Source: an uncultured Enterobacteriaceae bacterium
GTDB taxonomy: Bacteria; Pseudomonadota; Gammaproteobacteria; Ga0077536
Length of the DNA: 64,000 nucleotides
Assembly: GCA_964523765.1 (NCBI GenBank)
Contig: CAZFZX010000004.1
Coordinates: 1,394-65,393, forward strand
Direction of reading: 5' to 3'
In this document: positions 159-25,254 of the stretch, piece by piece
Layout of the letters: each line of letters opens with the position of its first letter
Numbering within the stretch: position 1 is the stretch's first letter
The notes under the pieces: generated by a model
Told to the model about the DNA's origin: nothing
The model's input: only the letters and a program-made list of their open reading frames with translations
Databases searched by the model: none
Position numbers and translations under genes: made by a program

Positions 159-304
159 GAAAGCGCTGACTAATTCGTGGAACGCCGCCTCGGGTTCAAA
201 ATCCGACTGTCCCAGAATTAATCAGAGGTTCCCTAAACCGAAAATTCCCACGAAGGCCGTTTCGATGCGGTTTGTGCTTGCCGCCCGTCGGCCGCGTGGA
301 GTCA

Positions 305-1642: not shown

Positions 1643-2227
1643 CTAGAAAAGCGGATGCAAAGGTTTGTCAAACCACAACCTTTTGCGCTCTCTTCCATAA
1701 GTTCCGAGAAGCTTCCATCTCCCGGCTTCCTTGATGAGCACATGATCTTGCTGGTTCCAGTTATCGATCGTAATGAGATCTTTCTCACCATCCGGAACCC
1801 CGACGAGAAGACCACTACAGCGGACGATGACGACGGTTGTCTCGGGCGCCGTTTTGACAAAACGCATATTGTGGTGCGTCGCCATTGAATCGAATACGGA
1901 AAAAATTCTCGTCCAGATACGCTCGGCTGCGACTTTGTCGTGCTCTCCGTTGGTATAGTTCGCTGAATAGAGATCCATGAGCCCATTGAGATCTTTTGTT
2001 TCGATCGCTTTTTCGGCGTCATGGAAAAATGCCATCACGTCGTTAAAGGTTTCCTCGCCGACCAGTTCCTTGGCTGACGGGTCAACGTCCACCGAATACT
2101 GCTCCGAATACGCGTGGTCCGTTGCATGAAGGTTATGGGATAGAAAGAACGCGGCCAGCAGGATCCATGACGAACGCGTTGCGTACGGGCGGTTCCTGGT
2201 CGCTCCGTGAGCGAAATGATCAAACAT
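1643..2227 (-). CDS. Secreted NTF2-like/SnoaL-like fold protein, function unknown
   Basis: 194-aa ORF with a hydrophobic N-terminus. The core (FFHDAEKAIETKDLNGLMDLYSANY...GRWKLLG) resembles DUF4440/SnoaL-type domains. Assignment by eye only. Confidence 0.45.
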   Translation of the reverse strand: MFDHFAHGATRNRPYATRSSWILLAAFFLSHNLHATDHAYSEQYSVDVDPSAKELVGEETFNDVMAFFHDAEKAIETKDLNGLMDLYSANYTNGEHDKVAAERIWTRIFSVFDSMATHHNMRFVKTAPETTVVIVRCSGLLVGVPDGEKDLITIDNWNQQDHVLIKEAGRWKLLGTYGRERKRLWFDKPLHPLF

Positions 2228-2382
2228 CGTCAGCCCCTCCTGATGAACGCTCCAAAACTCATTTTAACCAGATTAGTTGATTATAATCCGGAAACGTTCC
2301 GATCGACTCACGCGATAACGAATTCCGTGAAGTTCTGTTGGCGCCCGTTGAGAATTCCTGACCAAATCCGGTTCGCCGGTCT

Positions 2383-3345
2383 TTAATCAGGCCGGATCGC
2401 CGCAGCCCATTTCGCCATGTTCGTCTTCAGCGCGTTTACCAGATCCTCGCCGACGATGAACACGTTTTCCGCCTGATTCGTGATCGCGAAATACCCCCTC
2501 CTGATTCTGTCCTTGTCTCCAATTGACAATACTCGCGGGATTTGTGCATCGCCCTCGTAGATCGAGATTTCCAGGTTCGGCGACAACAGGCCGTAGGCCG
2601 CCAAGCCTGATGGGGTCTCGTCGGCAAAGCCCTTTATCCGCGCATTCTTTATTGCAAACAACAACTCCAACACTTTTTCCATTTCGGCAAGCCCAACCGT
2701 TGGCTCGAGCGTAAGCCATTTCCCCTTGTCATGTGTGACTACGATCTTCTCCTCACCCGTTCTCTCTATCTCCAAGCGCCCCATCTTGACCGGGTCGATA
2801 TCGAGAAGGCGCTTATCCCGGAGGGCGTAGACGTCTTTATTCGCCTCTTCGCGCACGCTCGCGTGAACGCGGTATACGGTGGGCTCCCCCCGCAACATAG
2901 CGTAGGCGACATTATGTGTGGGACCGCTGTCGCCGAACGAGACTACCGTTTCGGCGCCGGCAACCGTAAACCCCACTTCTATGCCTGGGGCGTCCAAGCC
3001 AAGCTCCCGCAACTTCTCCGGTCCGGGCTGAGCAAACAGTACCGCGTCCTTCCGACCCGCGACGATATTTAGCAGCATCTTGTCGATCGCTTCGTCGTCG
3101 CCTTTGGCGGCCAGCGGGTGAATGACGTACCACCCGTCCGGCTTGCGCAGAACGTCTATCCTGAGACCTGCCCGCTTATCGGCCACCCAAAATCCCTGGA
3201 CGTCACCAACGGAGAAGGAAAGCAGTTTCAAACTGGCCGCTTCGTCCTCTCGCTTTTTCTGCATCTCTTGCTCGAGAAAGTGAAAGGCCCCGCCCAAGGC
3301 GGTCAATACAAGGATCCAGAAAATGGTCTTTTTGACGAGATTCAT
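2383..3345 (-). CDS. DUF4340-like protein, the usual partner of GldG-type ABC auxiliary proteins
   Basis: 320-aa ORF with a single N-terminal TM helix (IFWILVLTALGGAF). Size and architecture match proteins normally encoded right after GldG-like genes. Confidence 0.55.
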   Translation of the reverse strand: MNLVKKTIFWILVLTALGGAFHFLEQEMQKKREDEAASLKLLSFSVGDVQGFWVADKRAGLRIDVLRKPDGWYVIHPLAAKGDDEAIDKMLLNIVAGRKDAVLFAQPGPEKLRELGLDAPGIEVGFTVAGAETVVSFGDSGPTHNVAYAMLRGEPTVYRVHASVREEANKDVYALRDKRLLDIDPVKMGRLEIERTGEEKIVVTHDKGKWLTLEPTVGLAEMEKVLELLFAIKNARIKGFADETPSGLAAYGLLSPNLEISIYEGDAQIPRVLSIGDKDRIRRGYFAITNQAENVFIVGEDLVNALKTNMAKWAAAIRPD

Positions 3346-3552
3346 GCGCTAGTTCCGTGCTACCGAACGCCCGGCGTTCCGTTGTTATCGGTACCGCGCA
3401 AGCCGAATTCCACTTCCCAGGCATCGCCGCGAAAACGGTTCTTTAGGAGTCTCGGGATCGCGAACACAGGGTGCCGGCGAATGCCCGTCGTGTCATCATT
3501 ACAGTGCCCGCTTCGCCGCGGCGCATAGGTAACCGAACGGAGCACAATCATA

Positions 3553-4224
3553 ATGGCAAAATCAGCGACTCGGACGACGACCGCAGCAGTTCTATTCCTC
3601 GTCGCCGTTTCGGCAGCACTCTTTTTCGGTTGGACAAAGAATTCTGACAGAATATCACGCCCGCCTGAGCAAATTGAGGACTATCTGTTCTGGGAACCAA
3701 AGAAATTGTCTGCCTTCAAATTGACGGGTTCCGGAGACCTGATACTTGACCGAAGCCAGATGAAAGGGAAATGGAGTTTCATTTTTTTTGGATATACGCA
3801 TTGCCCGGATGTCTGCCCCGCCACCCTGGCATCGCTGGGAATGACGTTCAAGGTGCTGGAGAAAAGCGACGATGTATCTTCAAGAATTCAAGGGTTCTTC
3901 GTCTCCGTCGATCCCGCGCGCGACGATCCGACATTACTGAAAAACTATGTCGGCCATTTCCACCCGGATTTTACCGGTGTTACGGGCGACGCCGAACAAG
4001 TAACCGCATTCAGCCGGCAAATGGGCGCGCTATACACGATTGATAGGGAAGACGGGACAGATGACTACGACGTAACACACAACTCTTCAATATTCGTCGT
4101 CGACCCGCGCGCCAGACTGTACGCCCGCTTCCCGCCTCCTCATGAACCCGCCAAGATGGCGGATATATTTGTTGCAATCGACGCGTTCTGGCAGGAAGAA
4201 GAAAAACGTCGGGGTTTCTTCTAA
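3553..4224 (+). CDS. SCO1/SenC-family copper chaperone (thioredoxin fold)
   Basis: N-terminal TM anchor, the CxxxC copper motif in FFGYTHCPDVCP, and a downstream conserved His in VTHNSSIFVVD. Confidence 0.85.
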   Translation: MAKSATRTTTAAVLFLVAVSAALFFGWTKNSDRISRPPEQIEDYLFWEPKKLSAFKLTGSGDLILDRSQMKGKWSFIFFGYTHCPDVCPATLASLGMTFKVLEKSDDVSSRIQGFFVSVDPARDDPTLLKNYVGHFHPDFTGVTGDAEQVTAFSRQMGALYTIDREDGTDDYDVTHNSSIFVVDPRARLYARFPPPHEPAKMADIFVAIDAFWQEEEKRRGFF

Positions 4225-4230
4225 ATACAC

Positions 4231-4377
4231 GTTCCAAAACATCGATGAGTTTCGGATTAGAGGCCGGTTGTCAAACATCATCACCGTCATACCGGGCTTG
4301 ACCCGGTATCCAGTAGAAAAAGTCCGCCGCAGGCGGATATTGTTTGACTGGACCCCGGATCAAGTCCGGGGTGACGG
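4231..4377. repeat. Three-hairpin intergenic repeat, copy A (full length)
   Basis: tcaccgtcat-[ataccggg cttg acccggtat]-ccagtagaaaaag-[tccgcc gca ggcgga]-tattgtttgactgg-[accccgga tcaag tccggggt]-gacgg. About 66 bp are ~90% identical to 39961-40025. The leader 4231-4260 resembles 39911-39940. The architecture is shared with 36894-37012. Confidence 0.7.
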
Positions 4378-4431
4378 CCGCCGGTGCAACGATAAGAGTG
4401 AAACATCTTTCGGAATACCCATTTTACCCCG

Positions 4432-4962
4432 TCATGGACCGCCGGCGCCCTCGTATTGACACTTGCAGAGATCGTTTCTGATATATTGAACGAGGTTTCG
4501 TATCGCCTCGTCGTCGAAAGTTTCACCCCAGTCGGGCATCAATTCCGATAACCCCACGCTTTTTCCGCCTTTCTTTATGACGTCAAAGAGGAATGCGTCG
4601 GTCCGTACCGAGAGCAGACTCGGATCGGCGAGGCTCCGGGGCTTGATGTCTCCCCCGAGGCTGTCGGCCAGCGGGCCGTCACCCCCGCCCGTCGCGCCAT
4701 GACAGGCTAGGCAATTACCCATGTAATTGCCTGCCCCCGACTGCATACCTCCGCTCCACGCTTCCTGGCTTACCGAGTAGGTATCCATGTCCTCAGCCAC
4801 CGCGCCTGTTCCGGCCGACAGCTGGCCCGCGACCACCAGCAACGTTACGAGTATCGTCCGGGCGATCGGGCTACGGCGAACACGGGAAGCGCTCGATGCC
4901 AAGGAGTCAGCTGCACGCGGTGCTTGTACGATTTCACTTGCAGCAATAACGACCGTTTTCAT
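4432..4962 (-). CDS. Class I c-type cytochrome (mono-haem), secreted or membrane-anchored
   Basis: CLACHG haem-binding motif and a distal LMPDWG Met-ligand motif, with a hydrophobic leader. Start set at the ATG at 4962, preceded by GGAGAA. The ORF is open to 5007 (TTG). Confidence 0.8.
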   Translation of the reverse strand: MKTVVIAASEIVQAPRAADSLASSASRVRRSPIARTILVTLLVVAGQLSAGTGAVAEDMDTYSVSQEAWSGGMQSGAGNYMGNCLACHGATGGGDGPLADSLGGDIKPRSLADPSLLSVRTDAFLFDVIKKGGKSVGLSELMPDWGETFDDEAIRNLVQYIRNDLCKCQYEGAGGP

Positions 4963-5095
4963 ATCCGAATTCTCCGATTTCTGTTCTGCGCCCAATCGTG
5001 TCTCCAAAGTACCGGTAGCCCGCGGTACGCCCCCTCGTGAGAAACGCGCGCCCGGAGTCCAAACTTCGGCAGATTCTACCGCAGCGACGACACCT

Positions 5096-6715
5096 TTATC
5101 TTGTCCGTCTGAAAACCATCCCGACGCCGGCCACGATCACTAGCGACGGCATTACCACGACCGACAACCAGAATACGAGCCGTCCCTGCGCCGCCGTCAT
5201 CATTATGGGTGTCAATCCACGCTCTTTTGTTCTTATGGATATCAGCATATTCACGTCCGCCAACCAATTGACCATGTTTAGGAAAAAGTCCTTGTTCCCA
5301 GCCAGTTTTATGTGTGTGTTACTGGCAAAATCGGAATCTCCGGTCACGATGAGTTTTCCCCACTTGGTCGTTTGGCTGCTTTTGTCGCCGCCGGCATCCC
5401 CGTCCGATGTGACTACTTCCACCGCGGCGACGGCCGCGATGCTGATAGGTCCGCGGCGATGTCTGTTCGGGTCGAATTTGAGATTCTCTTCGTCGAGCGC
5501 GCCGGTGATCGTCCAACTGTTAGCGCTTGTCTTGGCGAGACTATAGTTTCCTCTAGCCGGGTCCTCGTCTATCTCCACCGAACGGGCAGCGGGAAAGAAA
5601 GTGGCCAGCTCAAACTCTCGAGTGATCGGGTGTCTGCTTTCGTATTCAACCACGACCGGCGTGAGGTAGTTGGCGCCGTAAACCTGGCTGAGTTTATCGA
5701 TCACGATATCTTCGCTTACCTCGAAACCGAAACCGCTCAAGTATCCAGAGAGGTCGGCGCCGCTACCCGGATCCAGCATGAACAGCGCCCGGCCGCCCCC
5801 GGCGACATATTCCGTGATCTTGTCCAGCTCGACCGGTAACAGCGCGCTCTCCGGGCCGCCGATCACCAAGACGGCGGCGTCCTCGGGGACCTTATCAACG
5901 GCCATCAACAGTAACTCGCTTACCTCGTGGTTTTCCTTCTCTATCGCTTCGCGTGCGACCCCGTAACCATCGGCCTGCATGCTGTCGATACGCTTCTCGC
6001 CATGCCCTTTGACGAAGTAAATGGTTTTCTGTCTGTCGCTGAGAAGCTTGATCAGCGCACTGGATAAACGGCTCTCAGACTCGGTGCCGATGACCTGTTG
6101 CTTGTCACCGTACCTTATCAGGGTCGTGCGGTAGGAAGTTACTCCGAATTTTACGGCTTCGGCGGGACTCTTGTCCGGGTCCACGAAGCGGAATTTGAAC
6201 CTTGTCGAATAGTAGGAATATTCCTTCAACAAATCGTGCATAGCCTGACGCGTGCGTTCGTCGCTTCGGTAGAACGCGATCGCCTCCACGTCGTCCGGCA
6301 AAGAGTTCAGGATCCGGATAGTCTGGGCCGAGAGCGTGTATCTTTGATCCGCAGTCAAATCGATCCTTACTTTGTATCTAACGGACATGATACCGACCAG
6401 GCTCACGATAATGACGAAAACCACGGCCATGATCGTCGTGTTCAGGGCGTACTTCGTCGAGCGCTTCGAAACGAAATGGCGGATTTCGCCGAAGCGAACG
6501 TAGGCGAACAAAAGAAGCAGAAGCAGCCCGATCCAGATCAAGGCCATCGGTAATGCGCCCAACTCGCCCGTTACCGCGTAGACGATGCCCCCCGCCACGA
6601 TTAGAGCCGGGGCGAGAAGACCCAGCAACGTGAAGCCCCCCTTACCTTCCGTTACCGCCACCTCTTGGACTCCAGGCTCCGCAAAGTAAGAAACAAAAAC
6701 AACATGACAAAGCAA
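5096..6715 (-). CDS. GldG-like ABC-transporter auxiliary protein (ABC_transp_aux family)
   Basis: 539-aa ORF with N-terminal TM helices, a large extracytoplasmic domain and a C-terminal TM helix. It directly follows the ABC-2 permease. An alternative GTG start at 6661 overlaps the permease stop. Confidence 0.7.
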   Translation of the reverse strand: MLCHVVFVSYFAEPGVQEVAVTEGKGGFTLLGLLAPALIVAGGIVYAVTGELGALPMALIWIGLLLLLLFAYVRFGEIRHFVSKRSTKYALNTTIMAVVFVIIVSLVGIMSVRYKVRIDLTADQRYTLSAQTIRILNSLPDDVEAIAFYRSDERTRQAMHDLLKEYSYYSTRFKFRFVDPDKSPAEAVKFGVTSYRTTLIRYGDKQQVIGTESESRLSSALIKLLSDRQKTIYFVKGHGEKRIDSMQADGYGVAREAIEKENHEVSELLLMAVDKVPEDAAVLVIGGPESALLPVELDKITEYVAGGGRALFMLDPGSGADLSGYLSGFGFEVSEDIVIDKLSQVYGANYLTPVVVEYESRHPITREFELATFFPAARSVEIDEDPARGNYSLAKTSANSWTITGALDEENLKFDPNRHRRGPISIAAVAAVEVVTSDGDAGGDKSSQTTKWGKLIVTGDSDFASNTHIKLAGNKDFFLNMVNWLADVNMLISIRTKERGLTPIMMTAAQGRLVFWLSVVVMPSLVIVAGVGMVFRRTR

Positions 6716-7434
6716 AAGTAGAAGATCACGTCCTCCGTATCGACGACTCCCTTCGCCAGACTCGCGATATGCTCGTTAATCGAGAGATACGAAAGAACCC
6801 GGCCAAAACCCGCAGAGACGAAAGCTACCGAATAACTCATCAGCCAGAAGAAGAAAAGCATGCCGAAAGACAGCGATGCGGAAATTATCTGATTTTCGCT
6901 CAGCGACGATGTAAATATGCCCAAAGAGATGAACGCGGCTCCCAGCAAAATGAGACCACAATATCCCGTAATGATAGGAATGACTTCCGGCTCGCCCAGG
7001 AAGATCAGGAGGATCGGATACGTAGCCGTCAGCAGAATCATGGTGAGGAAAACAACGAAACAAGCCAGGAACTTCCCGGCGACCACATCGATATCACTTA
7101 CCGGATAGGTCAGGAGCAATTCGATCGTACCGGTCTTCTTCTCCTCGGAGAAAAGTCGCATCGTCAGGAGAGGCGTCATTAACAGCATAATGATGCTGAT
7201 ATTACCGATCAATGGTCTTACTACGGTTTCGTTGACGTTCAAAAGCTGATATTGCTTCGCTAACATTGGATTCGTTTGTGCTTGAAAGCTTACAACCGAG
7301 AACGTCGCGAGAAGATTGTAAAAAAAGTAGCCGGTATTCAACAAAAATGTCGTGATCACGACATAGGCGATCAGGGAACTAAAATACGAGTTCGATTCTT
7401 TGCGGAAAATGAGGCCGACACTTCTGATGTTCAT
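6652..7434 (-). CDS. ABC-2 type permease (NosY/GldF class)
   Basis: 260-aa polytopic membrane protein. The N-terminus IFRKESNSYFSSLIAYVV is typical of NosY/GldF-type permeases. There is a 4-nt overlap with the ATPase gene. Confidence 0.8.
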   Translation of the reverse strand: MNIRSVGLIFRKESNSYFSSLIAYVVITTFLLNTGYFFYNLLATFSVVSFQAQTNPMLAKQYQLLNVNETVVRPLIGNISIIMLLMTPLLTMRLFSEEKKTGTIELLLTYPVSDIDVVAGKFLACFVVFLTMILLTATYPILLIFLGEPEVIPIITGYCGLILLGAAFISLGIFTSSLSENQIISASLSFGMLFFFWLMSYSVAFVSAGFGRVLSYLSINEHIASLAKGVVDTEDVIFYFCFVMLFLFLTLRSLESKRWR

Positions 7435-8366
7435 GCCTCTTCCTTCGTTACGAGTTTGATGAAAATATCTTCGAGCGTCACTCCGATCGGACGCATTTCC
7501 ACCAAGTCCCAGTCGTGATGCACAACCATTGCCTGGATATCTTTCCTCACAGGTTGTGCGTCGTCGAATTCGACAACAAATCCGTTGGCCTCTTCGACGC
7601 CGCCCTGCTCTCGGTCGACGCTCGTTACACCATCCAACGTCCTGAGTTCACGCTCCACCTCATCGGCGGCGCCCGCTACGCGCAAGAACAGTCTCGGGGA
7701 GTTCGCGGACGCCAGCTTATCGGGCTCGTCCACGGCCACGAGTTTTCCTTGGTTAATAATCGCCACCCTGCCGCATAGCAGCGTGACTTCCGGAAGAATG
7801 TGCGTGCTCAAAATAACGGTATGCTTGCCGGCCAATTCCTTGATGAGTTTTCTGATCTCCCGGATTTGCTTCGGATCGAGCCCAACGGTGGGTTCATCGA
7901 GAATCAAAACTTCCGGATCATTCACGACGGCCTGGGCGAGACCCACGCGTTGACGATAGCCTCTTGACAGCGTTCCGACGAGCCTGTCGGATACCTCCGC
8001 GAGGTCGAAATCATCGGTCACGCGGGCCACACAACGACCGACTTCGCCGGACCGCACCCCTTTCATGCCCGATACGAAAGCAAGATAGTCGCGCACCTTC
8101 ATATCGTCATACAGCGGGACGCGCTCAGGCAAGTAACCGATCTTTTGGCGTACCTTCAGGGAATCCTCGAAACAATCAAAGCCTGCTACGAGCGCCCGGC
8201 CTTTGGTCGGCGGGAAAAAGCAGGTCAAGATCCGCATCATCGTGGTTTTTCCGGCACCATTCGGGCCCAGCAGGCCCAGAATCTCGCCCTTTTCGACGCG
8301 GAAACTGACGTCGTCAATAGCCCGGTGCGGACCGTAGTCCTTCGTCAGGTTTTCAACTTCGATCAC
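7431..8366 (-). CDS. ABC transporter ATP-binding protein (NosF/GldA class)
   Basis: Walker A GPNGAGKTT, signature LSRGYRQRV, Walker B LILDEPTVGLD. Confidence 0.9.
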   Translation of the reverse strand: MIEVENLTKDYGPHRAIDDVSFRVEKGEILGLLGPNGAGKTTMMRILTCFFPPTKGRALVAGFDCFEDSLKVRQKIGYLPERVPLYDDMKVRDYLAFVSGMKGVRSGEVGRCVARVTDDFDLAEVSDRLVGTLSRGYRQRVGLAQAVVNDPEVLILDEPTVGLDPKQIREIRKLIKELAGKHTVILSTHILPEVTLLCGRVAIINQGKLVAVDEPDKLASANSPRLFLRVAGAADEVERELRTLDGVTSVDREQGGVEEANGFVVEFDDAQPVRKDIQAMVVHHDWDLVEMRPIGVTLEDIFIKLVTKEEA

Positions 8367-8893
8367 TGGGTGACTCTACCGAAGGACTGTATCTCTTTAT
8401 AAGAGCCTGGTGCTGTGTCACCACTTAAGGCCGTCTCTATCGGCCGGTTTCCCACTTCGGTTGCCGCCAGTTCGAGCAGTGCCCGGTCATCGCCAAGCAA
8501 CTGCTCTATGTCCTGTCGCCTCCAGTCGCCTTCCCAGTTCCCTACGAGCGCATTCCAAACCTGCGCAATCGCGACTAGCTCCGCATCGGTAAACGGTTTG
8601 ACTTTCTGTCCGGCGAGATTACTCAGCTCCACATATTTTCTCATCGCGTGTACGACGACAACGAAGGGCGGACCACAACGAGAACAGTACTGCAGCATCT
8701 TCTCGGCATTATGACAGGTCGTGCATCTACTATAGGCCAGCGCCGTTGCTTCCTCGGCCGTATAGCGCAGATATCCTCTGGCTTTAGCCTCGCTGACGAC
8801 GCTCGCATTCAGGGGGTTAGGTATGAGTAGTATACCGACCAGCGCGGCGCCGATGAGGCCCACGACACCGGTCAGCCACCAGTGCATTTTCAT
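8363..8893 (-). CDS. Membrane-anchored protein with one CXXCH haem motif plus a CXXC motif
   Basis: N-terminal TM helix (WWLTGVVGLIGAALVGILLI), then CTTCHN followed 9 residues later by CSRCGPP. The stop overlaps the ABC ATPase start by 4 nt. Confidence 0.6.
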   Translation of the reverse strand: MKMHWWLTGVVGLIGAALVGILLIPNPLNASVVSEAKARGYLRYTAEEATALAYSRCTTCHNAEKMLQYCSRCGPPFVVVVHAMRKYVELSNLAGQKVKPFTDAELVAIAQVWNALVGNWEGDWRRQDIEQLLGDDRALLELAATEVGNRPIETALSGDTAPGSYKEIQSFGRVTQ

Positions 8894-9119
8894 GCTCGCG
8901 GCCGCCGTTGGCCGTGCACCGGCGCCACCGGCGTCCGTTCCGCTGTATCAGGAAGAATATGCCCGTCCATAAACGTCGTCAGTTCTCTCGCGAAGGCGCA
9001 AAGACACCATGCAAGTATCTTAGATGAATTTAATAACCGTCATCCATCACTTTGCGCGGCTTGCGTCTCCGCGAGAGTCATTCTTTCAGGATACCGACTG
9101 GATAGGCAACGCGATGTCT

Positions 9120-10055
9120 TCAATAACCGCTTTTCACCTTCTTGGAAACGTCGCCGGGAGCCTTCCTCAGCCCACCTTCCACGAATCCGCCTCCTTCGAT
9201 AGAACCGCGTCCGGCCAGATCCGTCTCCAAGAGTTCCTGCTCGTCCTTGAAGTCTTCGCTCGTGCCCGCGTTGAGCGGAGTCACATCGCCCTCGAGCGGC
9301 TTGAAGGTCGATTTGGGATTCAAATACTCCTCGAGGGTCTTGGGTGGTCCGACATCGGCCATCGCCCTGATCCAGGCGACGACATTCCAGATGTCCTGAT
9401 CCTGAAGAAAGTTACCCCATGCCGGCATCGACGACGACAGTGATACGGCTTCGCCGCCCCCTTTGATGACCGTAAACAACTCGAGGTTCGTCTTCTTGTT
9501 CATGTAGTCGCCTTTGGTCAATATTCTCGGCGCCGGATCCAACACATAGGCGCTAGGTCCGTTCCCCTGGAGCGTCCAACCGTGGCAGGTAATACAGTAG
9601 ACGTAATACCATTGTTTCCCCTCATTCGGATCGGCGCCCGCTACCAGCGTCTCGTCGAATTTGGGCGACCAATTGTGAGTCCATTGATTGTAGATCCCTT
9701 CGCCGTCCGCGGCATTGTTTACTCGGTCCCAAAGCTCCGTCCTGCCCCTTGATCCCGCATAACCGCTTTCGCCCTCGTTAAGGGTAGTCTTCTCCGTCCT
9801 TTTGCCTACACCCGTCAGGTAGTCAAACGGCTGAATGCCATAGGTACTGCCGGACTTACCGGCCGCCATGTCCGTAGCCTCGTTTTCATAGGCTTCGGCC
9901 GCCTTCAACAGAGCCTCCTCGGATTGAACCGGGCACTCTACCTTTTTGCCCTGTACCCGACACCTTTTTTCAGCGGCCACGGCAGAAGAGTTCGCACATA
10001 CAGCGAATACACTTACCACTGCGACCATGTATACCCTAAGCTTGGTACTCTTCAT
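9120..10055 (-). CDS. c-type cytochrome with a long N-terminal extension
   Basis: Signal peptide. CITCHG and a distal SMPAWG motif. The haem domain is paralogous to 4432-4962. Confidence 0.75.
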   Translation of the reverse strand: MKSTKLRVYMVAVVSVFAVCANSSAVAAEKRCRVQGKKVECPVQSEEALLKAAEAYENEATDMAAGKSGSTYGIQPFDYLTGVGKRTEKTTLNEGESGYAGSRGRTELWDRVNNAADGEGIYNQWTHNWSPKFDETLVAGADPNEGKQWYYVYCITCHGWTLQGNGPSAYVLDPAPRILTKGDYMNKKTNLELFTVIKGGGEAVSLSSSMPAWGNFLQDQDIWNVVAWIRAMADVGPPKTLEEYLNPKSTFKPLEGDVTPLNAGTSEDFKDEQELLETDLAGRGSIEGGGFVEGGLRKAPGDVSKKVKSGY

Positions 10056-10084
10056 TTCGGTATCCTCCTAGTAAAACAATGGAT

Positions 10085-11074
10085 TCATTGCGGCCACAAC
10101 TTCGACACCGCACTTCCATCCACTTTGAATAAAGCATTCTTCTTGATATCAGAAAACCAGATGTCCCCGGTGGGATCGACGCCGATATCCTTGGGTCGAC
10201 TGTCGCCCAACGCGGCGGTGACTTCCAGGAACTCTCCACTAGCGGGATCGAACGCCCCGATCTTTCCGATACGGCGGAGCGTGAAAAATATTTTTCCGTC
10301 TTCCTCGGCGGTCAAGCTATCGATCACGCCGCTATTGGGGACGGAAAAGGACTCGAACCGTTTGGCTTCCGGGTCAAACGAAGTCAACGCCCGGCCTTTA
10401 CGCCCGGCAAACCAAAGCACGCCCGAAGAGTCGATAGCGAGATCGACCGGCGCTTCGAAGGGTTCCGGCATCTCGTATTCGTGCATCGACCCGTCCTTCG
10501 CGTCCAACCGACCGAGTTTGTTGCCTTCGGTCTCGACGAACCAAACACGTCCTTTTGCGTCGGTAGCGATCCCGGCCGGGCGGCTGGCCGGCGTCAGGAT
10601 CGGATATTCGCTGAAAGTTTCTAGCTTCGGATCGAACACCCCGACCTTGTTGCCATAGAATTCCGTAAACCAGACGTTGCCGTCCGCGCCCTTCGTGATC
10701 CGGTAAGGCGAGCTCTCGATCGTAGGAATATCGTATTCTCGGAACGATTGGGTGGCCGGATCGAAAACGCCGATCTGATTTGCATCTTGTTGGGTATACC
10801 AAACGTTCCCCGCATCATCGACCACCACGTCCGAGGGGAAACTCCCGTGGGTCGGAATATCGTACTCGGAGAACGTCTCCTGGTCCGGCTGAAAACGCCC
10901 GAGTTTGTTCGTGTTCGCCTCGACGAACCAGACGGCGCCCGCCTTGTCCAGGTCGATCCTAACGGGTACCGCAAACGCGGTAGGTACTTCGAAAGAGCGA
11001 AACGGCGTAGTCGCCCATGACGCCGAAACAGGCGCGAAAGAGAAAAAAATCGCGATAATGGCAATTCTATACAC
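10085..11074 (-). CDS. Vgb-type (streptogramin-lyase-like, COG4257-like) beta-propeller repeat protein, secreted
   Basis: Signal peptide. Reiterated blades such as DAGNVWYTQQDANQIGVFDPATQSFREYDIPT and GADGNVWFTEFYGNKVGVFDPKLETFSEYPI. Confidence 0.75.
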   Translation of the reverse strand: MYRIAIIAIFFSFAPVSASWATTPFRSFEVPTAFAVPVRIDLDKAGAVWFVEANTNKLGRFQPDQETFSEYDIPTHGSFPSDVVVDDAGNVWYTQQDANQIGVFDPATQSFREYDIPTIESSPYRITKGADGNVWFTEFYGNKVGVFDPKLETFSEYPILTPASRPAGIATDAKGRVWFVETEGNKLGRLDAKDGSMHEYEMPEPFEAPVDLAIDSSGVLWFAGRKGRALTSFDPEAKRFESFSVPNSGVIDSLTAEEDGKIFFTLRRIGKIGAFDPASGEFLEVTAALGDSRPKDIGVDPTGDIWFSDIKKNALFKVDGSAVSKLWPQ

Positions 11075-11095
11075 GGGCGCTTTCCGCTATAGATT

Positions 11096-12310
11096 TCACG
11101 TTGATCCCCCGACGTACCGCCGCGCCCGACCGGCTAGCACGGCGAGGGCACCGATCAAAACGAACGCCCCTATCCACGCCAACAGTTTCTGCGACCCGAC
11201 GTCCTCCCGCAGTACTTCTTTAGCGACATCTCCTTGCATTTCCGCATCCCGTCGAGTGGCCGAATACGCCAGTGCCCGATCGATCGACAGCCTACCCAAG
11301 CGTTTCGCCTCCGTGCTCCCTTCACTGAACCAGAGCACCGAACGCTCATGATCGATCGCCAAGGCTCCCGGCAGGCTATTGAAACTGGGGATGTCGACTT
11401 CGTGAAACACTGCCGTTCGCGGATTGAAAACACCGATCTTGTTCGCGCGATATTCAAGGAACCAGATATTCCCCGCGGCATCGGCAACAATCGCGTTCGG
11501 GGAACTTCTCTTAGTGGGAATCAACGCTTCGTCGAAACGTAACCAATCGGGATAAAACACCGCGATACGGTTCGCTTGCATTTCGACAAACCAAACCCGG
11601 CCGTCTTTATCGACGGTGATTGCACCTGGATTCGCGAACGCGGTCGGCACCTCGTACTCGTCAAAATGTTGCCGTTCGGGAACGAATCTGCCGATCTTGT
11701 TTACGTTGGCCTCGGCGAACCAGATATGGCCTTTGTGGTCGACCGCCAAATGCCTCGGGTAAGCGTTAGTGGTCGGAACCGGATACCCCTTGACGGAGAA
11801 ATCCGTCGGGTCCACCCGATAGAGGTTGTTCTTATTGGAAGCCGTAAACCAGATGGCGCCACCGTCGTCGACGAGCAGTTCTTCGGGGATCGATTCGATA
11901 GAAAGAACGTAGCGGGCAAATGATCCGTCGACGGGAGAAAATTTTCCTAATGCATAAGACTCATCAGCGTTCTCTGCCCACCTGTTTACTGTGAACCAGA
12001 TCTCGCCATCGGGACTCAGCGCAATCCTCGAGAATCCGACATCGCCCCACGAAGCAGGCAGCGAATAGCTCGAAAACTTCTCGGTTGCGGGGTCATAAAC
12101 TGCCAGAGTCCGGCCAACCTTCTCGGCAAACCAGAGCCGTCCCGCGGAGTCAACGACAATCGACTGCGCGGAACTCAGCGCGTCGGGCAATGGCACTTCT
12201 TCGATCGGATTTTCCGACGCTGCGGGGACACCTCCGCACAACATCAGGGCCGACCCGAACGCCACCGCTCGAAGCGGTTTGTTTGGTTCTTTCGCGGTTG
12301 CGATGTTCAT
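11096..12310 (-). CDS. Vgb-type beta-propeller repeat protein with a C-terminal TM anchor
   Basis: Same blade motif (GRLWFAEKVGRTLAVYDP..., GHIWFAEANVNKIGRFVPE...). C-terminal hydrophobic helix LLAWIGAFVLIGALAVLAG. Start placed at the ATG at 12310 to avoid overlapping the upstream gene. The ORF is open to 12373. Confidence 0.7.
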   Translation of the reverse strand: MNIATAKEPNKPLRAVAFGSALMLCGGVPAASENPIEEVPLPDALSSAQSIVVDSAGRLWFAEKVGRTLAVYDPATEKFSSYSLPASWGDVGFSRIALSPDGEIWFTVNRWAENADESYALGKFSPVDGSFARYVLSIESIPEELLVDDGGAIWFTASNKNNLYRVDPTDFSVKGYPVPTTNAYPRHLAVDHKGHIWFAEANVNKIGRFVPERQHFDEYEVPTAFANPGAITVDKDGRVWFVEMQANRIAVFYPDWLRFDEALIPTKRSSPNAIVADAAGNIWFLEYRANKIGVFNPRTAVFHEVDIPSFNSLPGALAIDHERSVLWFSEGSTEAKRLGRLSIDRALAYSATRRDAEMQGDVAKEVLREDVGSQKLLAWIGAFVLIGALAVLAGRARRYVGGST

Positions 12311-12330
12311 GGCTACTAAATTTCTACGCG

Positions 12331-13026
12331 CTACCAGGTCATGGTCGGCTCGTAAAAATGCCGCAATTGCCAATTTGCATCTTTATAAGACGCGCCAATA
12401 TGGTTCGCATCGCCGATACGATACCTGCCCACCGCTATCTGTCGCGCTCGTTCCGTCTTATAAAACTCGATCATACTCGCTGGCGGTAACGCCTGCCTCA
12501 CACCCATCATCGGGTTGTGGCAGGAAGTGCAACCGGTGGTCTTGGCCGGATGGCCGGCCTTCACCACGCCGGCGAGGGCGCCTATCCAAAACGCGCACAG
12601 AATCAGCGCTGAGACGATCTTACTGGACGTCGCCATCTTTGCTGGTGATGCCTTGCGTCTTTTGAAGATGAGCGGTACCGATAACAGAAAAACGAGTACG
12701 AGCGACGGCAACCAGAACGTTCCGATGGACAACCACTTGGCCGCCTCTCCGGTCAAATACCAAAACGGCTGGAAAATAAAAAAGAGATACCACTCCGGTG
12801 CCGGAATATTCGCTCCTTCGTCGGGGAGCGGCGGCATATTGGAATCCATGGGCACCTGCAAGTAATAGGCCAGTACCAACGGCACCAACAACACGATCAG
12901 CAAAAGGAGCCCGGCCGTTAACGCGTGTTTCGGCCAAAATGGGTGAAACGATTGCGGATACGGCGGCGCATATTTCGGCGCCCGTACGATCTCCCGGTCC
13001 TTGTTACCCATGATCAACTCAACCAC
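12331..13026 (-). CDS. Cytochrome b C-terminal part (subunit IV-like) fused to a c-type haem domain (QcrC-like)
   Basis: PEWYLFFIFQPFWYL motif of cytochrome b/subunit IV, then a TM helix and CTSCHN near the C-terminus. Confidence 0.8.
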   Translation of the reverse strand: MVELIMGNKDREIVRAPKYAPPYPQSFHPFWPKHALTAGLLLLIVLLVPLVLAYYLQVPMDSNMPPLPDEGANIPAPEWYLFFIFQPFWYLTGEAAKWLSIGTFWLPSLVLVFLLSVPLIFKRRKASPAKMATSSKIVSALILCAFWIGALAGVVKAGHPAKTTGCTSCHNPMMGVRQALPPASMIEFYKTERARQIAVGRYRIGDANHIGASYKDANWQLRHFYEPTMTW

Positions 13027-13032
13027 CGGCGC

Positions 13033-13650
13033 TCACAGCGGCCCGGAGATCCCGTGACGCCGCACCATTCGGAAATGGAAATACAACAGCGCCGCCAGAA
13101 CGAGCGGGATCGCGAGGATATGCGTGTAATAAGCCGTTTTCAGGCTGAACGCATCGAGTAGAAGGTCCTTGAAGGGCGCCCCGACGACGCCCCATGTTCC
13201 GATGTAGTCCATCCATATCGCGAACGACCAATAGGCGCGCCAATCCCACGGCAGCAGGATCCCGCTCGCAACGAGGAGAAAAACCATCAACAGCTGAGCA
13301 ACCCCGGACACCCAGGTCAACTCCCGCGGACTCTGATAGGCCTTGTAATAGAACACGATAACCATGTGGGAAAACACCATCGCGAGAAGAAGCGTCGAAC
13401 CCCAACGGTGCACGTTCCTGAACAGCCATCCGAAAGCAATTTCATTACTCATCTGCTCGATACTGTACAAAGCCTTATCCGGCTCGGGTGTATAAAAAAA
13501 AAGCATGAACACACCCGTGACTACCTGAAGGCCGATGAGCGCAAACGACAGTCCTCCGAAACAGTAGAAGAAGTTCACGTGGGACGGGACGGCCTGCCCT
13601 TTCTTGAGCCTGATCCGCTCTTTAACCCGCGTTGCGAGGCCCGCAGTCAT
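13033..13650 (-). CDS. Cytochrome b6-like di-haem cytochrome b (N-terminal four-helix part, QcrB-like)
   Basis: His pairs with haem-b spacing: H-x13-H in NVHRWGSTLLLAMVFSH and H-x14-H in THILAIPLVLAALLYFH. Confidence 0.85.
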   Translation of the reverse strand: MTAGLATRVKERIRLKKGQAVPSHVNFFYCFGGLSFALIGLQVVTGVFMLFFYTPEPDKALYSIEQMSNEIAFGWLFRNVHRWGSTLLLAMVFSHMVIVFYYKAYQSPRELTWVSGVAQLLMVFLLVASGILLPWDWRAYWSFAIWMDYIGTWGVVGAPFKDLLLDAFSLKTAYYTHILAIPLVLAALLYFHFRMVRRHGISGPL

Positions 13651-14192
13651 CGTTTCGCCTCACCCAGCCCAACTTCCAGCATCCCCGGCGCCCCTTCCTT
13701 CGCCAGCGTCAGCGCTGCTTCCTTGTCCATGCCGTAGGTCTCGCCGGTAAAGTCGATTCTCCAGGCCAGCACATCCTCATCGACGTTGAGCGGGATCCGT
13801 TCGCGCACCTTATACGCCTCGTCGAACAACGACGGCATCTGATAACTGATATCGACGAGCGCATGTGTCCCATTGATCTCCACCTTGCCGACGTCCACGG
13901 CCAACCCGGGCGGGTATTTCTTGATGACCTCCAGGAACGCCTCGACCGACAGCCGCGATCGCTCGGAGCCTATCAGTTTATAGGCGAGCCGCGCAGAACT
14001 GCTTCCCCCTTCCTTCGTCGCCTCTGTTATATGCTCGTAGAACCGCTTGACGACGACGGCTGGTCCTTCTTCGGGATTGAGGCCTACACTTTGCCGATCA
14101 CACCCCGCGACGGACAAGCCGATGACCAAAAAAGGTGCGAGCCACCCCGCCCACGCGAGAGGGGTGGCATAACGATAGTCGGAAACCCCCAT
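13647..14192 (-). CDS. Lipoprotein of unknown function
   Basis: Lipobox LSVAGC. No Cys or Met-rich metal motif. It is wedged between the nosZ-like and cytochrome b genes, 4-nt overlap downstream and a 10-nt gap upstream. Confidence 0.55.
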   Translation of the reverse strand: MGVSDYRYATPLAWAGWLAPFLVIGLSVAGCDRQSVGLNPEEGPAVVVKRFYEHITEATKEGGSSSARLAYKLIGSERSRLSVEAFLEVIKKYPPGLAVDVGKVEINGTHALVDISYQMPSLFDEAYKVRERIPLNVDEDVLAWRIDFTGETYGMDKEAALTLAKEGAPGMLEVGLGEAKR

Positions 14193-14202
14193 GCGCCGGA
14201 GA

Positions 14203-15963
14203 CTAAAAACCTTTCACTTCTTCGGCGATCGTAAGCTGACCTTCTTCCACCAAGCCGGGCAGAGTCTGGGCTTCGGCATAATCGCCTATCGCCAGATTCG
14301 AACTGTCCCCGGCCGGATCGTCGACAAAGAACGACCCTCTCATCTCAAGGTGTAAGGGTCCACAGAAATGTTGACAGAAAATCGCGTACTCGCCGGCAAT
14401 ATCGGCCACGAACTCGGTCACTGCGGTGACCCCGCGAGGGGCGCTCATGTTCGTTCGCAATCCGTAGGGTCCGTAGATCGTGAATCCCATGGTGACGTCC
14501 GGATTCTTGGTGATGCCCGCAGCTTTGTCGATATTGGTCACGAAGAGCCGGACCTTATCACCCTTGTTGACCCGGATCTGCCGAGGGATATAACCATAGC
14601 TGAAGGCCTTGACGTGGATCTCCTTGACCCCGTCGACCGTTCTGATCCCCGGCTTCTCATTGGACTTGGGCATAAAGTATCTTTTCGACTTCGCCCTGTG
14701 CGCGGGATCGATCATCGGCGTCGAACCCGTGATCAGACCGCCCGAGGTCGCCGTGCCCATGTTCCAACGCTCGACCTGATAGGCCCAGATATTCTTCGCG
14801 TTGTGGGGCTCGCCATCCACCGGAATGATCTTCAAGGTCTTGCCATAGGTCGGGCTCTTTTCACGCGCGTCCCATAACTCGAAATTGACCGGATAGACGA
14901 TGCCGGTGGGGCTGAACAGACCGGTCGAGAACTTGTTCAGCGCGATGACATAAGCATTGTCGTTGCTGATCGAGATGTGCCCTGTTCTGTAATGTGTCGG
15001 GATCTCGTCGACGACTTCCAATTTCTTCAGATCCACCTTGACGTTGGCGTCGGCGACAAAACAGCTCTCGTAGGCATACTTCGAAGTCAACCCTTCGGTG
15101 CTGTCCTTCCCCGGTTCATAGACTCCGCCGTCCTTGTCGTAGACGTCCATCACCGAATGCAGCGGGCCGGCACAGGTCGGAAGCACCTTTTTCACCGCCA
15201 GTTTGTCCACATCGATAATGGTCATGGTCGCCGACAATTTGTCACTCACGAGCGCCAGCGTGCCCTCCGGAATGACGTCCACGCCGTGGGGATTCTTGCC
15301 GACCGGGATCTCTTTCAGGAATTTAAACGGATTGGCGGAAAAAACACCCACCGTGGAGTGATAATAATTACCCGCGAACACATACTTCCCTTTTCTACCG
15401 GCGTCGATGTAATCGGGTGCGCTCGGCGCGGGGCCCCAATCGATGATTTGCGTTTTGCCGGTCGCGATTTCCGTCTTCGACATCTTCCCGGTGTATTCAC
15501 CGGTGCCGAAGAGATATTTTCCATCCGTACTCAAGGCGATGTGATGGACGCCAAACGGGAACGGCAATGCAATCAACCGCTCGAGAAAACCGGTTTGCAG
15601 ATTGATCTCGCCGACGGTGTTCGCCCCCTTGTCGTTGACATAGAGGTACTTGCCGTCCGGGGTACCGTTCTTGTTCCCGTGATTGGTACCGCCGTACACG
15701 ACCTCGTGCAGATCGACACCGACATCGATGTGCCGGTATGTGCGCATACTCGGCAACCCGATGACCGCGACCTTGCCGTCCAGTCCGCCGGCGTTATACA
15801 TGATCATCGGATCATGCAGCACCGAATCCGCTGGCTCTTGTTCGGCATGCTGCCATTGCGGAATGGTCTCCTCCGCGCCAGCCGCCAGACTCAGCGACAG
15901 AGACACCAGCAAAACCCCGAAAAGAAGATTTCTCATCGGAAAGACGTGTTTCATGTCATGCAT
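14203..15963 (-). CDS. nosZ: Divergent nitrous-oxide-reductase (NosZ) homologue: beta-propeller plus C-terminal CuA cupredoxin, Sec-type leader
   Basis: GGLDGKVAVIGLPSMR, DGKYLYVNDKGANT, KNPHG, GPLHS, HYRTGHISIS, ALNKFS and GEPHN line up with NosZ propeller blocks. C-terminal CuA motif CQHFCGPLHLEM. No twin-arginine. Start at the ATG at 15963, 7 nt after GGAGGT. The ORF is open to a GTG at 15978. Confidence 0.8.
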   Translation of the reverse strand: MHDMKHVFPMRNLLFGVLLVSLSLSLAAGAEETIPQWQHAEQEPADSVLHDPMIMYNAGGLDGKVAVIGLPSMRTYRHIDVGVDLHEVVYGGTNHGNKNGTPDGKYLYVNDKGANTVGEINLQTGFLERLIALPFPFGVHHIALSTDGKYLFGTGEYTGKMSKTEIATGKTQIIDWGPAPSAPDYIDAGRKGKYVFAGNYYHSTVGVFSANPFKFLKEIPVGKNPHGVDVIPEGTLALVSDKLSATMTIIDVDKLAVKKVLPTCAGPLHSVMDVYDKDGGVYEPGKDSTEGLTSKYAYESCFVADANVKVDLKKLEVVDEIPTHYRTGHISISNDNAYVIALNKFSTGLFSPTGIVYPVNFELWDAREKSPTYGKTLKIIPVDGEPHNAKNIWAYQVERWNMGTATSGGLITGSTPMIDPAHRAKSKRYFMPKSNEKPGIRTVDGVKEIHVKAFSYGYIPRQIRVNKGDKVRLFVTNIDKAAGITKNPDVTMGFTIYGPYGLRTNMSAPRGVTAVTEFVADIAGEYAIFCQHFCGPLHLEMRGSFFVDDPAGDSSNLAIGDYAEAQTLPGLVEEGQLTIAEEVKGF

Positions 15964-16270
15964 CTTCATTACCTCCACACACCCCGGTCATACAGAAACC
16001 ACTACCGACCCGTTCAATGTTGCCACGACAACACAAAGGTCAAGGCAGAAGCCATAAATCATTCGTAGCCGCCGTTCGAAGCTCGCGGGCCCTTCAGCGG
16101 ATCAACGTCGGCGGGAGCCAGTCTTACCCACCTGTTTCCGCCTCCGTTCACACAACAGCCCGGGCACGGCGCCGGCGGTCGACACCAGCGCCCTGGTAGC
16201 CGACGACAGCCGCCACAATTCCCGCCCCGTCTGGACACGCACCAATGTCTCTTTTGTGAGTTTTAAAACC

Positions 16271-16284
16271 TTGACCTAGGTCAA
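16271..16284. promoter_or_regulatory. Crp/Fnr-family (FNR/ANR/DNR-type) binding-site candidate upstream of the nosZ-like operon
   Basis: Perfect 14-bp palindrome TTGAC-CTAG-GTCAA, about 310 bp upstream of the 15963 start. A weak -10 (GACATT, minus strand, 16249-16244) lies at class-II spacing. Confidence 0.5.
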
Positions 16285-19366: not shown

Positions 19367-19371
19367 TGTCG

Positions 19372-19639: not shown

Positions 19640-19654
19640 TGCCCTGTCCGCTCC

Positions 19655-25247: not shown

Positions 25248-25254
25248 CGCCTGC

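Follow-up and report, generated by a model that had tools for sequence, protein, structure and literature searches.

A probable complete type A clade III nitrous oxide reductase gene cluster in an uncultured gammaproteobacterium

Apart from nitrous oxide (N2O) reductase, no biological sink is known for N2O, a major greenhouse gas, and the locus described here raises the question of how a NosZ-like protein would be supplied with electrons and copper when neither nosD, nosL nor nosR lies beside its gene. The locus is part of a 64,000-nucleotide (nt) stretch of contig CAZFZX010000004.1 from an uncultured Enterobacteriaceae bacterium; this whole stretch is termed the window, and all coordinates refer to it. 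A reading made from the letters alone (the sequence-only reading) had placed at 2383-16284 a nosZ-like gene within a module of electron-transfer and copper-maturation genes. Our analysis indicates that the region is very likely a complete cluster of the clade III nitrous oxide reductases (L-NosZ) with the gene order termed type A below, for which an electron route and a set of helper roles are proposed. The cluster is real and coherent but is no new kind of system, since its order recurs in many bacterial phyla. Clade III enzymes were recognized only in 2025, and the locus is one more complete example, with nothing new in kind. Because the partner genes are fixed across phyla and neither NosD nor NosL adjoins them, copper-centre assembly and the electron route become testable with a defined set of candidate genes, and the comparison sharpens the question of how a CuZ centre is assembled without NosD and NosL.

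The central enzyme and its copper sites

The gene at the centre of the locus was assigned by a family model, by motifs and by matches to NosZ structures in the PDB.

14203..15963, minus strand: L-nosZ, clade III lactonase-type nitrous oxide reductase

Its open reading frame (ORF) reaches a GTG at 15978, with an ATG start at 15963, so that the product is 586-591 amino acids (aa) long; on metagenome contigs with 100%-identical neighbouring proteins the gene call is 586 aa, the length from the ATG. The NCBIfam equivalog model NF052460.1, named 'clade III lactonase-type nitrous-oxide reductase' and having a cutoff of 700 bits, was matched at 787.7 bits (E 3e-237) with model positions 1-480 of 480 covered. 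The canonical NosZ models stayed below their cutoff of 625 (clade I TIGR04244, 125.2 bits; clade II TIGR04246, 177.7 bits), and solved NosZ structures in the PDB were matched with a best E of 9e-26. The protein was found to consist of a Sec-type signal lacking twin arginine, a seven-bladed propeller of the lactonase/YncE type and a C-terminal cupredoxin (CuA) domain, which is the layout of the family, and the corresponding Pfam matches were PF21783 YNCE (4.5e-15), PF10282 Lactonase (1.4e-7) and PF13473 Cupredoxin_1 (1.6e-5). Criteria for L-NosZ that later work quotes from the discovery study (He et al., Nature 646:152, 2025) are 400-900 aa in length and, as motifs, CX2FCX3HXEM, GXHH or DXHH, PHG, GPLH, and EPH. 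The product of 14203..15963 has this length and all of these motifs, namely CQHFCGPLHLEM at residues 535-546, GVHH at 143-146, PHG at 230-232 (within NPHG), GPLH at 271-274, and EPH at 390-392, each of them invariant in 72 relatives. As far as sequence can tell, the protein belongs to clade III L-NosZ, and reduction of N2O to N2 would be its activity by virtue of what is reported at the level of the family.

The CuA domain of L-NosZ was compared with the canonical ligand set His-Cys-Cys-His-Met. Residues C535, C539, H543, and M546 are present, and the first position of the set is not filled by His: Met497 (codon 14473-14475, minus strand) occupies the column of Pseudomonas stutzeri H583, the first CuA His. 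The two top PDB matches are the F583 and W583 variants of NosZ, which differ from each other exactly at this column, and alignment with the CuA domain of ba3 oxidase set PDVIHGF against PDVTMGF of L-NosZ. The first CuA ligand is His in all canonical NosZ proteins and cytochrome oxidases. Met was found at this column in 72 of 72 L-NosZ relatives, and thus the CuA-type site of the whole family differs from that of canonical NosZ and the cytochrome oxidases. A CuZ centre needs seven His, and ten are invariant in the propeller half of L-NosZ (H83, H91, H145, H146, H207, H231, H274, H329, H334, and H392). In the phmmer alignment GVHH stands opposite H178 of P. stutzeri and not opposite the DCHH pair, so that the first three CuZ ligands are ambiguous from sequence alone.

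Layout of the cluster

All 14 genes listed by the sequence-only reading were recovered from the ORF list and its translations, with identities assigned by Pfam and NCBIfam, so that its coordinates, strands and gene identities were borne out. The 13 partners of L-nosZ are given below in order from L-nosZ leftward (TM, transmembrane; ABC, ATP-binding cassette).

13647..14192, minus strand: lipoprotein (lipobox LSVAGC; NTF2-like predicted fold)
13033..13650, minus strand: di-haem membrane subunit of the cytochrome b6 type (4 TM helices; PF00033, E 1.7e-35)
12331..13011 (ORF to 13026), minus strand: subunit-IV-like membrane protein fused to a C-terminal monohaem c (3 TM helices, PEWY, CXXCH)
11096..12310 (ORF to 12373), minus strand: Vgb-lyase-family beta-propeller 1, periplasmic (PF24684, E 1.2e-46; C-terminal TM anchor 392-410)
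10085..11074, minus strand: Vgb-lyase-family beta-propeller 2, with signal peptide (PF24684, E 2.9e-83)
9120..10055, minus strand: periplasmic monohaem cytochrome c (PF13442; C154, C157, H158, M210)
8363..8887 (ORF to 8893), minus strand: TM-anchored all-alpha CXXCH/CXXC protein (invariant C57, C60, H61, M84; C70, C73)
7431..8366, minus strand: ABC ATPase, NosF-like and GldA-like (PF00005)
6652..7434, minus strand: ABC-2 permease, GldF-like and distantly NosY-like (PF12679)
5096..6715, minus strand: GldG-like auxiliary protein, start uncertain (PF09822, E 5e-27; DUF7088)
4432..5007, minus strand: second monohaem cytochrome c, last gene of the long minus-strand unit (PF13442; C99, C102, H103, M157)
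3553..4224, plus strand: SCO1/SenC copper chaperone, TM-anchored (PF02630, E 2.4e-36; CPDVCP, His176; TM helix 8-26)
2383..3345, minus strand: DUF4340 protein with N-terminal TM helix (PF14238, E 5e-32)

Gene starts were taken from metagenome contigs carrying a 100%-identical lipoprotein and CXXCH/CXXC protein. On this basis the successive junctions between nosZ and the first cytochrome c gene measured 10, -4, 21, 20, 21, and 29 nt, a gap of 226-232 nt followed cytochrome c 9120-10055, and the next two junctions were -4 and -4 nt. The spacing claimed beforehand (-4 to 29 nt, then a 226-nt gap) agrees with the starts on the related contigs. The claim that all genes from the CXXCH/CXXC protein to the GldG-like gene overlap held for the 4-nt overlaps, while the size of the overlap between permease and GldG-like gene depends on the start chosen for the latter. 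Three proteins of the cluster belong to no Pfam or NCBIfam family: the lipoprotein, the subunit-IV-c fusion and the CXXCH/CXXC protein.

Recurrence of the gene order

Comparative genomics of this gene order beside orthologues of the central protein had been proposed as a check of the sequence-only reading. Two scans, together about 160 loci, were compared, and the outcome was strongly positive in both of them as well as in independently annotated contigs. In the forward scan, an alignment of 21 close L-NosZ homologues was run against one genome per species and gave 80 loci at 52-83% identity, spanning Gamma-, Alpha-, Beta-, and Zetaproteobacteria, Magnetococcales, Desulfobacterota, Nitrospirota, and Nitrospinota. 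Most of these loci carry the neighbour genes of the window, as seen when the window proteins were mapped onto them, and from nosZ to the GldG-like gene the two scans together gave at least 13 loci with exactly the window order. Two arrangements were distinguished: (i) type A, with the order nosZ-lipoprotein-b6-subunit-IV-c-Vgb-Vgb-cytochrome c-CXXCH/CXXC-ABC ATPase-permease-GldG-like(-DUF4340), in 32 loci; and (ii) type B, with cytochrome c immediately after L-nosZ, in 34 loci, mainly of Gallionellaceae, Nitrosomonadales, and Zetaproteobacteria. The complete type A order was found in L007, L009, L010, L012, L013, L041, and L067 and in the metagenome loci L094, L099, L130, L136, L140, and L147; independently annotated Halieaceae and Rhodospirillales contigs also have it. 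Many type B loci have the propeller genes and the CXXCH/CXXC gene as a block of their own at a distance of a few kb. Upstream of nosZ, type B loci encode a CydA-like membrane protein with c-type cytochromes. One type B locus of the Gallionellales (L081, 1-21767) has genes for a CydA-like protein, multihaem cytochromes c and an EB_dh haem domain upstream of L-nosZ, and a radical-SAM/SPASM gene, two PCP_red-domain genes and an FAD oxidase gene between cytochrome c and the propeller block.

The reverse scan, which set out from the CXXCH/CXXC family against metagenome contigs, had L-nosZ within 10 kb in 18 of the 22 loci of at least 15 kb and Vgb propellers in 35 of the 39 loci of at least 9 kb. 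This return to L-nosZ argues that the CXXCH/CXXC orphan protein is dedicated to L-nos clusters. The order of the gene set is conserved across at least 8 major lineages, a recurrence across phyla that is hardly compatible with a chance arrangement.

The electron-supply module

The 13033-13650 protein was found to have the four His ligands of a di-haem cytochrome b (His81/His95 and His177/His192), with the 14/15 spacing of the b6 type and with each His at least 90% conserved among 39 sequences. Its best NCBIfam model is ExtP at 169.6 bits against a cutoff of 290, and the b6 models are also below their cutoffs. The next gene product carries PEWY at residues 77-80, of which P, E, and W are invariant, followed by the haem motif C166, C169, and H170 with an invariant distal H223. 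No Pfam match was found for this fusion; its family profile gave weak matches to residues 217-334 of cytochrome b (E 0.06) and to b6f subunit 4 (E 2.8). The sequence-only description of it as a fusion of subunit IV and cytochrome c therefore stands in part: PEWY, three TM helices and CXXCH are there, but the subunit-IV half has no support from Pfam and a profile match of E 0.06. No Rieske protein was matched among the window proteins in the Pfam and NCBIfam scans, none is encoded in related clusters, and the related loci have no spare gene slot between b6 and the propellers for a Rieske subunit. The module resembles the Rieske-less cytochrome b complexes of Geobacter (ExtP, Cbc) and the b6f complex in its split cytochrome b, b6-type His spacing, PEWY-bearing second subunit, and c-type haem partner; it departs from them in carrying its c haem as a fusion with the subunit-IV-like protein and in having neither a Rieske subunit nor a multihaem partner.

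The most constant partner of L-nosZ is cytochrome c 9120-10055, which was present in 87% of the loci with at least 9 kb downstream and is the immediate neighbour of L-nosZ in 34 loci. This protein has a conserved N-terminal domain and a Cys32/Cys41 pair, and an alignment of 56 sequences shows 108 positions with a conservation of at least 90%. It is the probable direct electron donor to L-NosZ. The b6 module is missing in L048 and L050, and a CydA-like module stands in its place in Gallionellaceae, while the cytochrome c is kept; this fits a modular electron input. Such interchangeable quinol-oxidizing modules suggest that the electron input evolved in a modular way.

Propellers, lipoprotein and CXXCH/CXXC protein

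The two propellers are kept side by side across loci and are seven-bladed members of the Vgb family. Propeller 2 matched the solved structures 2qc5 (E 2e-57) and 2z2n (E 2e-46). The RPH and EPH of 2qc5, whose histidines we take to be catalytic or Mg-binding residues of Vgb, aligned with RPA and APV in propeller 2, which has Ala and Val at the 'PH' positions; the active-site His of Vgb are thus not retained. The VgbA and VgbB models scored 108-164 bits on the propellers against cutoffs of 600. With the 'PH' His replaced and no invariant His in either family, the propellers are unlikely to be lyases.

The lipoprotein gene always directly follows L-nosZ in type A clusters and is the immediate downstream neighbour in 32 loci. 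No sequence match for the protein was found in the PDB; its AlphaFold2 model matched ketosteroid-isomerase/NTF2 folds (3hx8, E 3e-4). The lipoprotein was considered as a substitute for NosL and ruled out, since, lipobox apart, none of its Cys, His, or Met residues is conserved and its predicted fold is NTF2-like.

The CXXCH/CXXC and ABC ATPase genes share 4 nt. No Pfam or NCBIfam match was found for the CXXCH/CXXC protein, the PDB profile search gave chance antibody matches only, and its AlphaFold2 model (pLDDT 85) had no fold match in the PDB (best Foldseek E 1.7).

The ABC/GldG-like/DUF4340 set in relation to canonical nos helpers

The ATPase aligned with NosF (7o0y_B) over residues 2-235 at E 1e-40. 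ABCA-type ATPases score higher, so that the similarity is at the level of the family and does not argue for orthology. For the permease, no match to NosY was obtained with the single sequence at E up to 1. When a permease profile was used, NosY was the only PDB match below E 0.1 (the next matches had E of at least 0.48), with a shared motif GT.ELLLTYP. Across phyla the permease is 61-83% identical, similar to L-NosZ itself, which speaks for a constrained function linked to the cluster. The GldG-like protein has TM helices at its N terminus and a single one at its C terminus, as well as a large periplasmic domain; its gene follows the permease gene in all complete loci, and the DUF4340 gene comes directly after it in other L-nos clusters.

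Two known systems were used for comparison. The gliding-motility proteins GldA, GldF, and GldG of Bacteroidota are the best NCBIfam models of the set and share the order ATPase-permease-GldG. However, their equivalog cutoffs are far from reached (GldA 300.9 vs 402.6 bits, GldF 151.4 vs 288.5, GldG 96 vs 389.9), the hosts here are non-gliding Pseudomonadota, and the cassette is linked to L-nosZ and not to gld genes. With the NosDFY(L) machinery of P. stutzeri (7O0Y) the set shares an ATPase that is a clear relative of NosF and a permease whose profile has the motif GT.(E/M)LLLTYP in common with NosY; it differs in lacking the beta-helix protein NosD as well as NosL, the periplasmic partners here being the GldG-like and DUF4340 proteins. 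Models of NosD, NosL, and NosR had no match among the roughly 60 proteins scanned in the 64-kb window, and their absence, asserted by the sequence-only reading, holds within it. The annotated surroundings of the cluster on four related contigs likewise gave no NosD, NosL, or NosR.

SCO1 and the second cytochrome c

The SCO1/SenC protein has the fold of its family, the CxxxC motif (C84, C88), the distal His (H176) and a membrane anchor, with C84, C88, and H176 conserved. Together with the second cytochrome c (3553-5007) its gene forms a two-gene insert between the GldG-like gene and DUF4340, and this pair was found at varying positions in other loci (L006 16783-18082, L089 8187-9036, L091 10594-11700, and L161 642-1800). 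The closest gammaproteobacterial loci have SCO1 immediately upstream of L-nosZ. Its place beside L-nosZ is specific to certain lineages, and SCO1 is no universal part of the cluster. In the window it is present and convergent, as the sequence-only reading had it, and intact in CxxxC and His.

The likeness to CuA-site assembly by Sco1/SenC with PCuAC lies in the retained CxxxC and His, in the position of SCO1 beside the gene of a CuA enzyme, and in PCuAC and Csp accompanying SCO1 in an alphaproteobacterial L-nos locus; it differs in that no PCuAC gene was found in the window and that SCO1 is near L-nosZ in some lineages only. In that alphaproteobacterial locus (L170 3154-9605, Rhodospirillales), SCO1, PCuAC (PF04314), the copper storage protein Csp, and a CcmH-like gene lie directly upstream of L-nosZ, with three thioredoxin-like genes and a DsbD_TM gene also upstream.

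An FNR-type box upstream of L-nosZ

Regulators of the FNR/Dnr/NnrR type bind palindromes of the form TTGAY-N4-RTCAA and control canonical nos genes. Such a palindrome was found about 300 nt upstream of L-nosZ.

16271..16284, no strand assigned: FNR/Dnr/NnrR-type palindrome TTGACCTAGGTCAA, probable site of an anaerobic or NO-responsive activator

This box is the only perfect copy in the intergenic regions of the cluster. The strict form TTGAT-N4-ATCAA with at most one mismatch was not enriched in the window; the informative test is the relaxed palindrome across loci. Of 68 loci, 36 had TTGAY-N4-RTCAA in the 500 nt preceding L-nosZ, among them the window and nearly all proteobacterial loci, against a background of 0.028 per 500 nt over all locus sequence.

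Two further FNR-type boxes were observed elsewhere in the window, TTGACCGAAATCAA at 29598-29611 and TTGATCGAAATCAA at 39023-39036. These adjoin molybdopterin oxidoreductase and RACo genes and URO-D-like methyltransferase and DUF1638 genes, respectively, which hints that the corrinoid methyl-transfer genes may also be under anaerobic control.

Proposed electron route and helper roles

The gene content is consistent with the following scheme. Under anoxia or NO, an activator of the FNR family would switch on the long minus-strand unit. Quinol would be oxidized in the membrane by a Rieske-less dehydrogenase composed of cytochrome b6 and the PEWY-bearing fusion of subunit-IV-like protein and haem c. 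Electrons would then pass from the fused haem c to cytochrome c 9120-10055, and possibly also to cytochrome c 4432-5007, and from there to CuA of L-NosZ, at whose copper-sulfide centre N2O would be reduced to N2. The propellers, the haem-c/CXXC protein and the NosF/NosY-like ABC pair with the GldG-like and DUF4340 proteins would most likely replace NosD and NosL, and this replacement set may build or maintain the copper centres in the periplasm, while SCO1 would most likely serve the CuA site. The chain from quinol through cytochrome c to a NosZ-like protein with a helper set other than NosDL, as put forward in the sequence-only reading, is reasonable on gene content.

Compared with other clade III L-nosZ clusters, the locus has the same enzyme family, a Sec signal, cytochromes and a NosF/NosY-like ABC pair, no nosD, nosL, or nosR nearby, and a gene order identical to that of many loci in public metagenome-assembled genomes (MAGs). 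It departs from them in carrying cytochrome c and SCO1 between the GldG-like gene and DUF4340, where the closest relatives have SCO1 upstream of nosZ, and in that the second cytochrome b that follows the binding protein elsewhere is not within the window. Clade II nos clusters of the Wolinella and Firmicutes types encode a Sec-dependent NosZ with NosB, NosG, NosH, and NosC or with Rieske/cytochrome b genes. These are alike to the present locus in Sec export, a membrane quinol dehydrogenase, c-type cytochromes and an ABC pair, whereas the locus is without NosD, NosL, NosB, NosG, NosH, and Rieske, has Met for the first CuA His, and reaches 177.7 of the 625 bits of the clade II model.

Several points weigh against the scheme. 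The helper role of the ABC/GldG-like/DUF4340 set, the propellers and the CXXCH/CXXC protein is one that we infer from gene linkage only. Similarity to NosY is marginal (a profile of 15 permease sequences against 7o0y_D, E 0.0038, TM helices 2-5), and neither the propeller families nor the lipoprotein have an invariant Cys, His, or Met for copper binding. The assignment of subunit IV appears weak at the profile level and would follow from PEWY, gene position and topology; it is uncommon for a quinol oxidase site to lack a Rieske protein; and with Met for the first CuA His, electron entry may differ from that in canonical NosZ. Of 75 loci, just 10 have SCO1 in the vicinity of L-nosZ. In addition, one L-nosZ MAG also has nosDFLYX (PMC11033732), so that canonical helpers are possible elsewhere in the genome beyond the 64-kb window. 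Tentatively, and with more doubt than confidence, the helper set may be seen as an uncharacterised machinery for a CuZ-type centre that works without NosD and NosL, in an enzyme with a CuA-type site having Met for the first His.

Alternative readings

A part of the helper set could have another role. The propellers and the haem-c/CXXC protein might be docking or scaffold subunits for electron transfer at the membrane, leaving maturation to the ABC/GldG-like/DUF4340 set only. The propeller genes lie between those of the subunit-IV-c fusion and cytochrome c, one propeller is TM-anchored, both lack conserved metal-binding residues, the CXXCH protein has a haem motif with a conserved Met, and in Gallionellaceae the Vgb-Vgb-CXXCH-cytochrome c block lies apart from the ABC genes. 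We nevertheless consider this division of labour unlikely, given that the CXXCH/CXXC gene stands directly before the ATPase gene in all type A loci, overlapping it by 4 nt here, and that the propellers are kept in clusters without the b6 module (L048, L050, and Gallionellaceae). The converse suspicion falls on the ABC/GldG-like/DUF4340 cassette, which together with the Peripla_BP_6 protein (described below) could be a general envelope transporter, a mere passenger with no role in N2O reduction. Linkage of the cassette to L-nosZ across Gamma-, Alpha-, and Betaproteobacteria, Desulfobacterota, and Nitrospirota, with a permease 61-83% identical, makes this distinctly improbable, as does the finding that the closest solved relatives are NosF and NosY. 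It is true that the best family models are those of gliding-motility GldA, GldF, and GldG, but all three score well short of the equivalog cutoffs. Conserved His or Met are few in the GldG-like and DUF4340 proteins, and conserved Cys is absent from them; in betaproteobacterial L021, L022, and L027 and in several metagenome contigs (e.g., L096, L123, and L139) the cassette is on the opposite strand, several kb from L-nosZ. These observations, too, speak for a passenger.

The activity and the novelty of the system can be questioned as well. That the protein acts on a substrate other than N2O, or detoxifies rather than respires, was judged very improbable. Met takes the place of His in the CuA site, the clade I and clade II model scores are far below cutoff, and no other denitrification gene was found in the 64-kb window; yet the equivalog model NF052460.1 is matched above its cutoff, and the dedicated quinol dehydrogenase and FNR-type box point to respiratory use. 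Reduction of N2O by the family is moreover reported, according to later papers, by He et al. (2025), who published L-NosZ as a new N2O-reducing family (Nature 646:152). There is hardly any room left for the view of the sequence-only reading that this is not a described nos architecture. That view could draw on the lack of NCBIfam or Pfam models for the lipoprotein, the subunit-IV-c fusion and the CXXCH/CXXC protein, and on the neighbours being given only as 'cytochromes and transporter-related proteins' in the literature (PMC13477213). It failed on the published family and its published lack of canonical accessory genes (PMC13477213, PMC11033732), on the existence of an NCBIfam equivalog model, which the protein matches above cutoff, and on the presence of the same cluster in many public MAGs. 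Lactonase-type nosZ-like genes in Nitrospirota and Nitrospinota, including the genome of locus L069, had been noted by 2024 (Mosley et al., PMC11033732), and clade III MAGs without canonical nos accessory genes, with cytochrome and NosF/NosY-like transporter genes nearby, have been described (Wang et al. 2026, PMC13477213). The list of partner genes and the Met-for-His CuA site may already be treated in the L-NosZ discovery paper. The reading preferred here remains that of a type A clade III cluster with the electron route and helper roles proposed above.

Extent of the cluster and remainder of the window

The interval first proposed, 2383-16284, contains real genes, but the conserved unit is larger. 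On the right it takes in the box at 16271-16284, whose last position coincides with the end of that interval, and on the left two further ORFs.

1643..2227, minus strand: small ORF, possible part of the cluster (homologues 61-63% identical in L067 and L161)
305..1615, minus strand: Peripla_BP_6 periplasmic binding protein, probable part of the cluster (PF13458, E 7.6e-44)

ORF 1643-2227 had no Pfam or NCBIfam match. The Peripla_BP_6 gene comes after DUF4340 in L099, L130, L136, L140, L146, L147, L154, and L156 and in the Halieaceae contig. As both recur in related clusters, the cluster reaches further left than 2383. Many type A clusters end in a second full-length cytochrome b after Peripla_BP_6 (e.g., L099 13715-14872 and L130 16036-17136), which is about 30% identical to the pair of b6 and subunit IV; it was not found in window positions 1-304, where there is no ORF.

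G+C content is 52-57% in the cluster (2000-16000) and 60-62% in the adjacent 16 kb (16000-32000), and the L-NosZ proteins of Alpha-, Beta-, Gamma-, and Zetaproteobacteria share 72-83% identity. The lower G+C of the cluster and the high identity of L-NosZ across classes suggest that the L-nos cluster moves horizontally.

Between the convergent genes of the second cytochrome c and SCO1 lies a hairpin.

4322..4338, no strand assigned: GC-rich hairpin with T-runs on both strands, resembling a bidirectional terminator

Terminator-like sites in the window numbered 26, somewhat above the 16.9 +/- 5.4 of shuffled sequences, while sigma-70-like promoter sites were not above chance (5 found, 6.6 expected). 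Rfam gave no match anywhere in the window. ORF 17754-18893 (minus strand) was rejected as a gene: it is a shadow ORF, and the real genes, with calls taken from contigs of closely related metagenome populations, are those of enoyl-CoA hydratase (17904-18758, plus strand) and CoxG (18866-19366, plus strand).

Beyond the cluster the window carries genes unrelated to it, among them those for corrinoid methyltransferases, three molybdopterin oxidoreductases and an enzyme of the xanthine dehydrogenase type. The region 19655-38890 holds a corrinoid-dependent methyltransferase set with two URO-D/MtaA-like genes, a B12-binding protein, RACo, CobS, and CobT, interleaved with molybdopterin oxidoreductases having 4Fe-4S and NarJ-like partners. 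An enzyme of the type II dimethyl sulfoxide reductase family is encoded at 54891-60092, with a molybdopterin subunit of 918 aa, a NarJ-like chaperone and a haem subunit of the ethylbenzene dehydrogenase type.

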